Assembly (NCBI GenBank): GCA_048937405.1
Contig: JBHLNF010000009.1
Coordinates: 139,096 to 203,095 of the forward strand
Reading direction: 5' to 3'
Length of the DNA stretch: 64,000 bases
DNA from: Promethearchaeota archaeon
Lineage (GTDB): Archaea; Asgardarchaeota; Lokiarchaeia; Sigyniarchaeales; SOKP01
In this document: in pieces, positions 1,322 through 6,447 of the stretch
Layout: each line of letters opens with the position of its first letter
How positions within the stretch are numbered: the first letter of the stretch is position 1
The notes under the pieces: model-generated
What the model saw: the letters and a program-made list of their open reading frames with translations, nothing else
The model's database searches: none
What the model was told of the DNA's origin: nothing
Made by a program: the position numbers and the translations under genes

Positions 1322-3385
1322 TTATTTTTCAAAATATTTTTCTATTTTAATAATCCAAGGATGATTATTAATATTTTCTACTTCATTATTTATATCCTCA
1401 TCACTTCGTAAGTTTTTAATAAAAAGATCTAATCTTTCAAATGATAACTGCTTTAGATTTTTAAGATATAAGGATACTCTATTAATTAATTCTGTATTTA
1501 AACCATCTGATTTAAGCTTACGGGAAAATATAATCTCGCTTATTAAAAGATTTATTAATTTGTTAAAATATTCAATAATATTTTTGTTTTCATCTCTTAT
1601 AATCTCATTTTCATTTATATGGATCATTATATCTGCCAATTTATTAAAAACATCATATTCCTCAAGGAATTTGAGTGGTAATCTATTAATATTATTAACA
1701 GAAATTTCTGTGGTTAAATGTGCTCCCAAATTAAATACAGAATCATAATAAAAGTTCATTACCTTTGAATTCATTAATAAGAGAAGATATTTAATACTAA
1801 ATTTATCATCTAAATTCTCCTTTGGGATTATAGCGATACAAGTACTTAAAGGATAATATTTCATATTGTCATAAGCTACAGTGAGATTTGAACTAATTGT
1901 TTGCATGATTAATTTTTCAGGTTTTTGAAATATCGATTCATCCCGAGCCCTATGGAGGGCTTTAGGGTCATAATTCACATACAAACCATTAAAATCTATA
2001 AAATAACGTCCAATATTTTTACCCCTAAGAGTTTTTTTAAACTTTTCACTAACTTTATGATCTTTTAAGAATTTTGTGTCGTTTCCAGTAGCTATACACG
2101 TTTTTGCTTCAAAATAGTCATTTAAAATAAAATCTTTATTATTTCTAATATAATTTATGATTTCAAGTTCATCATGTAAAAGTTCCAAATTAAAGTTATA
2201 ATTTTCTTGCTTTAAGTAGATGTTTTGGGGTAATTCCTTGATTAAAATATCTTTAGATGTTATTATGTTTTGTTTATTAAAATTAGTTTTTATTTTGATT
2301 TTATGAGTTTTTATTGGAAGGGTATTTTTTATAAGAATAATAACGGCTTCGGCTGTTATAGAAGGAAAAGCTCCAGCTCCAACATCAATGATTTCTTCAA
2401 TAGTAGTATGCTCAAGAAGAAATTTCCTTAGTAAATCATAATTATTAGATCTAATTATATTTTTATGAATAACAAAACAATTTATTGAAAATAAGTTGCA
2501 TATATTAATAGAGCGCTCAATAAAGATTCCAAATGTATTCATTAGACCTTTAGTGGTTTTATATCTTTCCTGGAATATTGCCTTCTCGAGAGGAGAGAGG
2601 TTTTTATTTGAAATATACGGGGGATTTTCAATTATTATATCAAAACCTCCTCTCTCCATTATTTTTGGGAATTCATAGAACCAATGAAAAGGTTTTAATG
2701 TATATAGCATTGTCTTTTCCTCTCTTTCTGTTAGATCCAATTTTTTTAAATCTTTATGGGTATGAAATAAATACTTAATTTCATCATAAAAACAGGCATT
2801 CAAATCTTTATGATTTAAAGAAGTTATTTCTGATTTGTTAATGTAGCCAATTACGGCATTACCTAATTTTAAATTAAAATGTATATTTTGCTTATCATTA
2901 TCCTTTTCATTATGAACCAAGTGTTTTATCGTAGCCAATAATCTTTTTTTTGTATTTTCAATTGCATCTTTTTCAATATCTACACCAAATAAATTACGCG
3001 AAATAATTTCTTTTTTTATCTTTAAATTTGTCCAATTTATTATTCCTAGGCTTCTCAAATTAACCATATATTTTTCTATGACTTTTAAAGCAGCAATTAA
3101 AAGGTGTCCACTTCCAACAGCAGGATCTAATACTTTCAAATCCCTTAATACTTCAAAAACATATTCAAATTGTTCTCTATCAATTTTATCAATAGTATAA
3201 ACTAAGGAACCTCTATTATCATTCTCTTTTCGAATGTATTTTTCAAATAATTCATCTATAGATATTTTATTTGTTGAAAATCTCTTATTAATTTTAGTCA
3301 CAAGAAATTTATCTATTGTAATTTGAGCAATGTAATTAGTTAAATTTTCAGGTGTGTATACTCTTCCTATCTTCTGTGAATTCAT
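1322..3385 (-). CDS. N6-adenine DNA methyltransferase, Eco57I/TaqI-like with C-terminal target-recognition domain
   Basis: GRVYTP, DPAVGSGH (motif I), FGVDI, ENPPY (motif IV); TaqI_C-like 'LRGKNIGRY...PEKLIM'. Confidence 0.85.
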   Translation of the reverse strand: MNSQKIGRVYTPENLTNYIAQITIDKFLVTKINKRFSTNKISIDELFEKYIRKENDNRGSLVYTIDKIDREQFEYVFEVLRDLKVLDPAVGSGHLLIAALKVIEKYMVNLRSLGIINWTNLKIKKEIISRNLFGVDIEKDAIENTKKRLLATIKHLVHNEKDNDKQNIHFNLKLGNAVIGYINKSEITSLNHKDLNACFYDEIKYLFHTHKDLKKLDLTEREEKTMLYTLKPFHWFYEFPKIMERGGFDIIIENPPYISNKNLSPLEKAIFQERYKTTKGLMNTFGIFIERSINICNLFSINCFVIHKNIIRSNNYDLLRKFLLEHTTIEEIIDVGAGAFPSITAEAVIILIKNTLPIKTHKIKIKTNFNKQNIITSKDILIKELPQNIYLKQENYNFNLELLHDELEIINYIRNNKDFILNDYFEAKTCIATGNDTKFLKDHKVSEKFKKTLRGKNIGRYFIDFNGLYVNYDPKALHRARDESIFQKPEKLIMQTISSNLTVAYDNMKYYPLSTCIAIIPKENLDDKFSIKYLLLLMNSKVMNFYYDSVFNLGAHLTTEISVNNINRLPLKFLEEYDVFNKLADIMIHINENEIIRDENKNIIEYFNKLINLLISEIIFSRKLKSDGLNTELINRVSLYLKNLKQLSFERLDLFIKNLRSDEDINNEVENINNHPWIIKIEKYFEK

Positions 3386-3724: not shown

Positions 3725-4014
3725 AAATAATCTGATATAACCAGACTGAAGCTTATTATTATATTATTAACGTAATTACTAACGGAAAAACTATACTGAT
3801 CAATAATATAATCCAAAACCAAAATGTCCCAAACATTTTAGTTTGTTTTTTATAATTATAATATTCCTCTTTAAAGCGTATTCCAACATCATATATTTCC
3901 TCTAATTTTGCTTGAAAAAAATTCGCTATTAGAATTAAAGGAAAAATAAGAAATCCATCAATATTTATTCCTCTTAAACCAAAACCTAGCGATATGATGA
4001 TTATTCCAAAATAT

Positions 4015-4210
4015 ATTGGATGCCTACAGAATGAGTGAACTACACACAGCCGAAAGGCTGTCGCTTCCTACGAGTGCGCAACCGCTTCTACTACGGGTTG
4101 GTCTGTATGTCGTAGAAAACCATTCCATCGTGTTAGGAATGATTCCTCGTTCACGGAGGATTCATGCGATAAGAAATCGAATTTATGTTTCTCTGATAAA
4201 AACCGGATCA
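4015..4210 (-). ncRNA. putative TnpB omegaRNA/reRNA: scaffold over tnpB 3' end and right end, guide from the flank
   Basis: Known TnpB architecture; scaffold 3' boundary at 4035, guide 5'-UCAUUCUGUAGGCAUCCAAU; 5' boundary is a guess. Confidence 0.55.
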
Positions 4211-5484
4211 TGATATTAATTGCTGAGTTGAGATCTCGGTCAATACGATTTCCACAATCACAAATAATAAATCTCTCAAAAATTACCCTATTTTTGAGCT
4301 TTCCACATTTGCAGCAGGCTTTTGTAGTCTTGAATTCGTCAATTCTTATTACTTTTTTACCCATTTTTTCTGCTTTGTAGGTTAAGAATTCGACAAATCG
4401 AGACAAATAGCCTGTGTTGTGAACCGAATGGTTGAGTGTGTGATTTAACCTATTCTTTTTAGCATTACCCGTTCCTTTCTTCTTTTGAGCCATCTGTTTT
4501 ACTTTTAAATCTCCAACAATAATCGTGTTCGCTTTGGTATTAGTTACAATTTGGTTTGAGAGCCAATGCTGGAAATCTTTCAGTTGATAAGCGCATTTTT
4601 TAATCATCCGAAGCAGTTTTGAATGATACCAATGCCATTTATTACTGTATCTCTTACAATGATCTCGTTTTGAGTGGACTTCTTCTATTTTTTTTTTCCA
4701 ATAGAGGTCTGCTCTTCTGTGAGTGAATTGTACTGAGTTTCCAGAAAGGTTTATCCCTACAGTTTGATTTATTCCTAAATCAATTGCTTGATAAGAGCGA
4801 TTATCATAATATTCAGGGACGTTGAGATCGTATGTGAGGGAAATATACCATCTCTCATCAGACTGAAAAAGTTCTATTTGCTTAATAGTCCCTTGAGGAA
4901 TGAGATGAGAGGGAACTTCAAATTCAAGTATGATATTCGAAGGATGTTTATGAGAGAAGATGATTGAACTCTCTTGTAATTTAAAACCAGATTGATTATA
5001 ACAAAGGGTGGTGAAATACTTCTTCCCTTTAAATCGGGGGGATCTTGCATCTTTATCTCCCTTTTTCCATAACACAAAGAAGGATTTATAGTTTGCATCG
5101 AGTTTTTTCAGTACTGTCTGGAGAACTTTTGAATATACCCATTTATATTCTGGATATTTCTCTTTTAATTCCGGTAATGCTCTTGATTGGATAAGATAAT
5201 TAAGATAGCGACGTTTTTCTCGTGGAAGATCCTTATTTTTGTACCAATTTTCCATTCGTTCAGCTAACGCAAAATTATATAAGAGGCGACATTTGTCTGA
5301 TAAGATCCAAAGAAGGAGTTCTTGCTTTTCAGAAGGGAATATCCTAATTCTTTGCGTTAGCTTCATTTCTATAATGAGAGTACACCGCAAATTAAAAAAG
5401 AGGAGTGGATAAAGATTTAGTGATTTTTTCTTCATGCTCAATTCATCATCTCCCTAAAAGGAGGTGTATTCTTGAGCTTTTGTA
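4035..5484 (-). mobile_element. IS200/IS605-family tnpB-only (IS1341-like) element, 1450 bp
   Basis: Left end follows TTTAT (5489-5485, minus) and has a subterminal hairpin (gctcaa 5436-5441 / ttgagc 5472-5477); right end has hairpin acagcc-gaaa-ggctgt (4046-4061) and ends GTTCAC; no target-site duplication; no tnpA. Confidence 0.9.
4068..5366 (-). CDS. tnpB: RNA-guided endonuclease TnpB
   Basis: N-terminal 'RIRIFPSEKQ...CRLLYNFAL', PRFK, RuvC-I AIDLG, IIVGDL, IDEFKTTKACCKCG zinc finger, RuvC-III DRDLNSAINI; start taken as ATG 5366 (ORF track starts at 5441). Confidence 0.92.
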   Translation of the reverse strand: MKLTQRIRIFPSEKQELLLWILSDKCRLLYNFALAERMENWYKNKDLPREKRRYLNYLIQSRALPELKEKYPEYKWVYSKVLQTVLKKLDANYKSFFVLWKKGDKDARSPRFKGKKYFTTLCYNQSGFKLQESSIIFSHKHPSNIILEFEVPSHLIPQGTIKQIELFQSDERWYISLTYDLNVPEYYDNRSYQAIDLGINQTVGINLSGNSVQFTHRRADLYWKKKIEEVHSKRDHCKRYSNKWHWYHSKLLRMIKKCAYQLKDFQHWLSNQIVTNTKANTIIVGDLKVKQMAQKKKGTGNAKKNRLNHTLNHSVHNTGYLSRFVEFLTYKAEKMGKKVIRIDEFKTTKACCKCGKLKNRVIFERFIICDCGNRIDRDLNSAINIMIRFLSEKHKFDFLSHESSVNEESFLTRWNGFLRHTDQPVVEAVAHS

Positions 5485-5880
5485 ATAAATTCCATTTGTT
5501 AATAATTTGCTAACAGTATCTTTGGCTCCAACCACTCTACGCATTAAAATAGTCCTTAATAATATTAATATTCCTAAAATCATTAATATTAACCCTAGAA
5601 TATCAAACCATCTTACATTAAAAGGATCTTTAAAAATTGAAGGTTTTTGAATTATTTCCTCTTCAGAAGGAATTATCATTGGCGCATAGCAAAAGAAATT
5701 AAAAAGAATGACTGAAATAATGTTAATAGTGGTGTTTTCTAATATTTCCGTATATTTATCACGATTTTTAAGAAAATAAGCAAATATCATTATAAGAACA
5801 AATAAACTTCCTATTAGGCTTAATCTAAATATCCATAATATCGACATTTTGTTCACCAAATTAATTTTTTATCATGTAAT

Positions 5881-6447
5881 TTATTCTTTTATTATTTTGA
5901 AAGGTAAATATCTTCCTACTCTATTTTTGTAGTTTTTATAATCATCGCCAAATCTTTGAAGTAGAAATTTTTCCTCATCGATGGCTTTTGAATTAAAAGT
6001 AATTATATTAAAAATAGCGATTAATAAGACAATTATAGTTGGAATTATTAGAAAAGAACCGAAAACAAGTAAAAATACCCCAAAAACGATAGGGTTTCTC
6101 ATAATTCTATAAATTCCTGTAGTAATAAGCTCAGTTTCGTCTATAGGGAGTTCAATCCTAAAGTTAATCCCAAGTGCTACAATTCCCAATATTTCCAATA
6201 AAAATCCAAATGAGATAAGAATCATCCCAGTTATAATAATCATGTCATTCGATAAGAAATTTAAATGCCAGAAAGTCTCAATTAAATTATTGAAAAATAT
6301 ATATAAGATAATCAGAACTAACCATAAGAATATCGATACCGAACTAAACTGTGTCAATATAGCAGATCCCTCATGAGTACCATGAGGATTACTACCGCTT
6401 TTTTTTACTACTATAAGAGGCCAAATAAAGCCAATAATAAATAACAA
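5881..6447 (-). CDS. isoprenylcysteine carboxyl methyltransferase family membrane protein
   Basis: LITTGIYRIMRNPI, DEEKFLLQRFG, YKNRVGRYLP; true start may be ATT 6492 after a GGTGA RBS. Confidence 0.85.
   Translation of the reverse strand: MLFIIGFIWPLIVVKKSGSNPHGTHEGSAILTQFSSVSIFLWLVLIILYIFFNNLIETFWHLNFLSNDMIIITGMILISFGFLLEILGIVALGINFRIELPIDETELITTGIYRIMRNPIVFGVFLLVFGSFLIIPTIIVLLIAIFNIITFNSKAIDEEKFLLQRFGDDYKNYKNRVGRYLPFKIIKE

Follow-up and report, generated by a model that had tools for sequence, protein, structure and literature searches.

A tnpB-only IS200/IS605 element splits a methyltransferase gene

The window, which is the whole 64,000-nt stretch of archaeal DNA that was analysed, contains a tnpB-only IS200/IS605 element (IS1341 type) inside a membrane methyltransferase gene, and the anatomy of this element is confirmed to the exact base (Table 1). 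With a probability of about 0.88, we read it as a non-autonomous element that would have been inserted by a TnpA acting in trans, would derive its guide from the host flank, and would encode a TnpB that cuts the empty allele. An earlier note on this DNA had proposed an IS200/IS605 insertion whose deletion rejoins the host frame as GIY followed by SFCRHP, and both proposals are confirmed. Deletion of 4035-5484 (1,450 bp) yields a continuous 216-codon frame encoding a restored protein of 212 aa, from the ATG at 5847 to the stop at 3759, and the unbroken orthologs match the junction.

Because many neighbouring deletions also stay open, restoration of the host frame alone cannot fix the element ends. 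Comparison with congeners places them to the base. In the congener G044, both host flanks map to adjacent bases (64460 and 64461), and eight congeneric orthologs (65-70% amino acid identity) are unbroken at the junction; six of them read TTTAT followed directly by TC, and in one the flanks meet at precisely these positions. The same boundaries are supported by ten family members with common ends and by loose contig ends at 4034/4035 in four public runs, where other element copies continue into other flanks. No target-site duplication was found in the empty-site comparison with congeners, and there are no terminal inverted repeats, the left and right termini of the element being unrelated. The element carries tnpB and, as the earlier note had stated, no tnpA of its own.

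The hairpins at both ends are imperfect (7-8 bp), each is preceded by a 4-nt guide, and both subterminal guides fit their cleavage sites (AATA/TTAT and GAAG/TCAC), with deviations in a few sister elements. This pairing rule between a 4-nt guide and the cleavage site is that of IS608. The register of the guides is validated by the autonomous IS605 of G044 (L017), which shows the same register and scaffold with the guides AAAG/TTAC and GAAT/TCAA, and whose empty site is present in this genome.

Table 1. Positions of the element, its host gene and related features (window coordinates, except for the mini-derivatives, which are given by contig)
Feature	Position	Strand	Basis or remark
tnpB-only IS200/IS605 element (IS1341 type), 1,450 bp	4035..5484	-	empty sites in congeners, sister copies
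Host motif TTTAT, left cleavage site of the transposase and predicted TnpB TAM	5485..5489	-	7/10 genomic members, most congener sites, 6/8 empty orthologs
Left DNA guide AATA (element nt 15-18), predicted to pair with TTAT	5467..5470	-	register equals AAAG/TTAC of the autonomous IS605 in congener G044
Left-end subterminal hairpin (imperfect 8-bp stem, TTTA loop), then ATGAAT	5441..5466	-	folding z -2.35
tnpB, 432 aa from the conserved ATG; HTH, RuvC, zinc finger, 45-aa tail overlapping the omegaRNA	4068..5366	-	NF040570 match
RuvC-I Asp196 (IDLG)	4779..4781	-	invariant in 120/120 homologs
Gly285 replacing the canonical RuvC-II Glu (VGDL, not EDL)	4512..4514	-	Gly in 119/120 homologs
Alternative Glu344, six residues before the first CxxC	4335..4337	-	invariant in 120/120; follows strand 338-343 in the model
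RuvC-III Asp378 (DRDLN)	4233..4235	-	119/120 homologs
Predicted omegaRNA scaffold core: five helices and a pseudoknot between loop 4149-4154 and terminal 4035-4040	4035..4159	-	covariation
Right DNA guide GAAG, predicted to pair with TCAC	4064..4067	-	in L031 and L037, GAAA accompanies TCAT
Right-end subterminal hairpin	4045..4062	-	two-sided changes in 6/7 pairs
Right cleavage site / TEM TTCAC	4035..4039	-	shared ends of family members, loose contig ends
Predicted guide (host flank; working length about 16-20 nt)	4015..4034	-	conservation stops at 4035
5' half of the host PEMT/ICMT-family membrane methyltransferase gene	5485..5847	-	extends 12 codons into the element, stop at 5446
3' half of the host gene, 91 codons, SFCRHP...	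3759..4034	-	uninterrupted ortholog matches PEMT, E 6e-8
Intact neighbouring PEMT/ICMT-family paralog, directly upstream of the host gene	5881..6447	-	syntenic in congeners
Mini-derivatives (genome G000)	C7:3511-4090, C7:803802-804385, C7:865987-866567, C19:67893-68473, C26:202844-203432, C28:286650-287240

Sister copies share the ends and the insertion motif

The genome assembly (G000), from an Asgard archaeon that most likely belongs to the Promethearchaeota, comprises 4.47 Mb in 29 contigs at about 29% GC. A genome-wide search for the element ends, with which the earlier note had expected to find copies alike in ends and flanks, returned nine sister elements with GTTCA(C/T) ends and mostly TTTAT flanks. 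The ten family members consist of the split-gene copy, three other full-length copies (91.9%, 90.0% and 78.1% identical; two exactly 1,450 bp and the third 1,449 bp long) and six mini-derivatives. All ten end in GTTCAC or GTTCAT, and the sequence beyond is unrelated. The insertion motif TTTAT claimed in the earlier note is well founded, since it stands at the left end of seven of the ten members and is retained in six of the eight empty orthologs; TTTTT is found in two members, and one is rearranged (left-hairpin register). At a background of 0.0056 per position for TTTAT, seven of ten gives a binomial p of 2e-14. Among congener sites, TTTAT is seen at a further four and TTAAT at one, and another is off by one base. 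The two TTTTT members and the TTAAT at one congener site suggest that position 4 of the motif may be loose. The first host base past the right end is T in seven of the ten members, through either a slight bias or, in so AT-rich a genome, chance. Nine members are intergenic, and the split-gene copy alone lies inside a gene.

All four full copies have open tnpB frames under purifying selection, with dN/dS among copies of 0.19-0.25. The six mini-derivatives (580-591 bp, 79-85% alike) have one internal deletion in common; they retain both ends and the omegaRNA region, their tnpB remnant has stops, and they are possibly PATE-like elements or guide donors. In addition, one full-length sister (L051, C25:52583-54032) and an element of G053 (L052) are the same insertion at an orthologous site in two species. 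The two elements are 94.3% identical, their flanks are 83-89% identical, and their tnpB genes show a dS of 0.13 and a dN/dS of 0.25. These values point either to selection having maintained the insertion for long or to conversion among copies. A sister common to two species at an orthologous site indicates that these elements can persist for long.

Two side observations concern the same genome. The mini-element at C7:865987-866567 (L054:1459-2039) is flanked on both sides by the same host 12-mer, which occurs once in the empty sites of G044 and G053. On the left, this 12-mer takes the place of the outermost part of the element, and the guide of the mini-element therefore matches the left junction of the same copy over a 12-nt seed that follows TTTAT; such a flanking repeat is unusual for a family without duplications. 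The genome also holds at least three other tnpB families, with open frames of 422, 411 and 396 aa, and the 396-aa family adjoins broken IS607 tnpA genes.

TnpB has a rearranged RuvC site

The TnpB matches NF040570 at 176 bits (cut-off 100), and an upstream ATG at 5435 would give a 455-aa protein. The predicted structure (pLDDT 87.5) shows the TnpB fold, and its best matches are the TnpBs of ISFba1 and ISDra2. The conservation of the active-site residues given in Table 1 was counted over 120 homologs at 52% identity or more, and the named TnpB homologs are mostly labelled Promethearchaeota, Lokiarchaeota, Odinarchaeota or Hodarchaeota. Judged by its site residues, this TnpB has the published rearranged RuvC-II site, in which Gly stands for Glu and an alternative Glu is present, and is thus of a known class (PMC10691335, PMC10530073, PMC10711439). 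The earlier note had passed over this rearrangement. TvTnpB, an IS605 TnpB with a rearranged site, cleaves DNA (PMC10530073), and the rearranged site has been reported to show no collateral cleavage. Activity cannot be taken for granted, as some native TnpBs, HpyTnpB among them, are inactive in assays.

The replacement of the canonical RuvC-II Glu by Gly could also be taken to mean that TnpB is catalytically dead and that what remains is a relic, either in decay or with no function beyond DNA binding. We consider this unlikely, because the alternative Glu and the RuvC-I Asp are invariant throughout the homologs and the RuvC-III Asp is missing from a single one, because the same arrangement is active in TvTnpB and the Fanzors, and because four full copies keep open frames under purifying selection.

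Membership of the pro-Fanzors or Fanzors was considered and rejected. RuvC-I reads DLG in 117 of the 120 homologs and DPG in none, and the relatives are solo or linked to Y1, not to IS607.

The predicted omegaRNA ends at the right end and points to the empty allele

Conservation across 13 loci stops at the right end of the element. A six-helix model over 4159-4035 has 95.5% of its cells paired, with 15 of 35 pairs changed on both sides, and slid controls reach 31-42%. The structure was drawn by eye from the same sequences and the related loci are not independent, so the covariation supports the scaffold and does not prove it. Single-sequence folding of the region is not significant (z -1.04), and only the covariation is informative. 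A terminal pseudoknot, as predicted here, is a known TnpB feature.

With the scaffold ending at 4035, the guide would be the host flank from 4034 and the target would be the empty allele. This is the boundary, guide and target that the earlier note had proposed, and the covarying scaffold and the end of conservation at 4035 bear it out. As far as the sequence tells, the only perfect target for the predicted guide is the empty allele, and a whole-genome search found no match to TAM plus guide in the filled genome. TTTAT is very probably the TAM of this nuclease, given that the tested ISGst2 has the same TAM and TEM.

By analogy with ISGst2, ISDra2 and IS608, a Y1 HUH TnpA in trans would have pasted the element into this site as single-stranded DNA. 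Transcription through the right end would give an omegaRNA with the host flank as its guide, and TnpB, via Asp196, Glu344 and Asp378, would cut copies of the locus that lack the element, where TTTAT is followed by a match to the guide. Recombination with a filled copy would then restore the element after the cut. The filled allele would escape the cut, since what comes after its TAM is the left end of the element.

The search for a transposase

The earlier note had held that TnpA must be supplied in trans. This agrees with an element that lacks the gene, but the search of this assembly gave no donor: no Y1 tnpA was found in the 29 contigs, contig ends included, with PF01797, NF033573 or tblastn using four related TnpAs. 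Absence is not proven by an assembly in 29 contigs; as long as no tnpA is evident, the element is probably immobile at present.

Y1 tnpA immediately precedes the genes of TnpB relatives at 48-57% identity (L039 and L041), and these Y1-linked relatives share the right end and the Gly/alternative-Glu site. Among 54 genomes of the genus, Y1 tnpA occurs in four and this TnpB family in four, with two in common. Autonomous IS605 elements, in which Y1 tnpA is followed by tnpB, are present in G053 (L016) and G044 (L017) and have the same end scaffold; the TnpB of L017 has the canonical RuvC-II Glu, and this genome is empty at both sites (C7:921990 and C24:21556). The TnpA of these elements is the best candidate for a mobiliser in trans.

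The element could alternatively be an Asgard aCas1-TnpB transposon or an IS607 element, moved by a Cas1-like or serine recombinase and not by Y1 TnpA, but this is largely refuted and highly improbable. Asgard aCas1-TnpB loci have been reported with a downstream GTTCACTCA motif, which this junction spells, but the TCA at the junction is host sequence, and the motif is matched only because this host Ser codon is TCA. Remnants of IS607 tnpA are present in the genome, but these matches are stop-interrupted or partial, fall below the cut-off and lie beside other tnpB families. No Cas1 was found in the genome with PF01867, which a very divergent aCas1 could escape, and neither Cas1 nor a serine recombinase was recognised beside any TnpB relative viewed. 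Furthermore, Y1 tnpA is adjacent in L039 and L041, and the element ends obey the Y1 guide rule.

A broader idea, which we raise tentatively and regard as rather unlikely, is that these rearranged-site TnpBs, an Asgard-centred family, survive in lineages without any TnpA, being kept at fixed sites across species by re-homing, driven by TnpB, against empty alleles that come in through DNA exchange, and that the mini-elements of ~585 bp donate guide RNA to TnpB in trans. Hints of such TnpA-free persistence are the lack of tnpA in the assembly, the orthologous shared copy with its tnpB dN/dS of 0.25, and the six mini-elements that keep the scaffold while their frame decays.

The host gene, the age of the insertion and excision

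The intact ortholog of the host gene matches Pfam PEMT above the cut-off and ICMT slightly below it, so "PEMT/ICMT family" is the safe name. As the earlier note had observed, the reading frames of both halves are free of stops and frameshifts. The dN/dS of the split gene against its orthologs is 0.14-0.24, that of the intact G044 copy is 0.17-0.26, and relaxed selection on the split gene was not detected in this comparison, whose power is low because the orthologs are distant (dS 0.9-1.2). The host gene is knocked out at present, a passive and apparently dispensable target.

Three further observations were made at or near this locus. The host 3' half can be read in the frame of the tnpB stop (TAG) through 11 open codons (4017-4076, minus strand), which is probably a coincidence (one in three). 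Downstream, 1322-3385 (minus strand) encodes a 687-aa Eco57I/TaqI-like adenine methyltransferase with a specificity domain, which adjoins the host gene also in G005 and G021. The ORF at 9547-10968 (plus strand), by its translation read by eye, resembles a branched-chain polyamine synthase-like domain fused to a C-terminal S-adenosylmethionine decarboxylase domain.

The insertion had been called recent, partly for its lack of a target duplication. That argument falls away, since the absence is a family trait and says nothing on age. The host halves offer 110 possible single-step nonsense changes and contain zero stops, which bounds neutral divergence at about 8% (unweighted). The insertion is young relative to the species divergence (dS 0.9-1.2), and not necessarily very recent. 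The word "recent" is therefore justified within this loose bound and no further; the nearest sister is 92% identical, no identical copy exists, and there is no sign of a current burst.

A reversible switch, in which TnpA in trans would excise the element scarlessly and turn the methyltransferase back on in part of the population, would account for the intact host halves, whose dN/dS matches that of the intact G044 copy, and for the split-gene copy being the sole one of ten members in a gene; excision in this family is scarless. The earlier note had likewise expected excision to switch the gene on, and it holds to the extent that the DNA product of excision would restore the gene. According to Meers et al. 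(bioRxiv 10.1101/2023.03.14.532601), however, TnpB cleaves the joint left by excision and favours the return of the element, which should oppose reactivation, and we therefore reject a likely switch. No tnpA was found in the assembly, an insertion younger than about 8% neutral divergence would leave the halves just as intact, and an intact paralog adjoins the host gene. These points make the switch quite unlikely. No joint across the empty junction (4034 to 5485) was among the matches listed from four public contig sets, in which contigs drop rare variants and which may include the source sample, so that this result does not count as evidence.

The lack of decay in the host halves would also fit removal at the RNA level, by an IStron or an archaeal bulge-helix-bulge intron, with the host protein still made. 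This is barely credible: no group I intron or other Rfam family was found at gathering level, the space from the left end to tnpB is only about 120 nt, against an IStron, and a canonical bulge-helix-bulge with cuts at both ends does not pair (one of four central pairs). No RNA holder was among the matches listed.

Comparison with known systems

The closest parallels to a non-autonomous element mobilised in trans are ISGst2 and related tnpB-only elements of Geobacillus stearothermophilus, which have the same TAM (TTTAT) and TEM (TTCAC), hairpin ends with DNA guides, and PATE-like mini derivatives; one TnpA mobilises that group in trans, and cut-and-copy retention has been proposed for it (bioRxiv 10.1101/2023.03.14.532601). 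In contrast, the host here is an Asgard archaeon, no cognate tnpA was found in the genome, and the copies are 78-92% identical and not a young burst. The RuvC-II rearrangement is established here for the Asgard TnpB alone.

TnpB2/TvTnpB (PMC10530073), RIIr-5 (PMC10691335) and the D-phi-G and Ealt clade (PMC10711439) have the same RuvC-II Gly and a Glu six residues before CxxC, together with D-phi-G at RuvC-I and a link to IS605 TnpA. The TAM of TvTnpB is TGAC, whereas TTTAT is predicted here, and the present TnpB differs in the CxC of its second zinc pair and its 45-aa C-terminal tail; the likeness is one of site residues, not of a tree. The predicted model shares its overall fold with the TnpBs of ISDra2 and ISFba1 (PDB 8H1J and 8IAZ; TM about 0.63-0.65 by query), in which the omegaRNA likewise overlaps the 3' end of the gene and has a terminal pseudoknot; sequence identity is about 20%, and ISDra2 has the canonical RuvC-II Glu.

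The alternative Glu is also common to pro-Fanzors and Fanzor2 (PMC10711439), but the element here has neither DPG nor an IS607 tnpA and is not cyanobacterial, and ApmFz2 matches only the C-terminal third of TnpB by sequence. The Cas1H-Asgard aCas1-TnpB transposons (PMC10691335) share the Asgard host and GTTCAC near the 3' end; they differ from the present element, which has no Cas1 in the genome or recognised beside the relatives viewed, no flanking repeats, and Y1-type ends.

Implications

More than 65% of Asgard genomes contain IS200/IS605 elements (PMC13343696). Peel-and-paste insertion, a TAM that equals the insertion motif, a guide taken from the flank and cutting of the empty allele are established biology; the mechanism of the present element follows from its well-studied relatives, and its nuclease activity, expression and mobility are predicted. 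With the DPG and IS607 signatures absent, the element gives no evidence for an Asgard origin of Fanzors. It does make an Asgard TnpB family that appears to be uncharacterised (120 homologs, 52% identity or more) ready for testing, supplying exact ends, a TAM predicted from many sites, an omegaRNA supported by covariation, and, in congeners, a candidate TnpA. Its type of rearranged active site, reported to be free of collateral cutting, would be useful in a compact editor of 432 aa.
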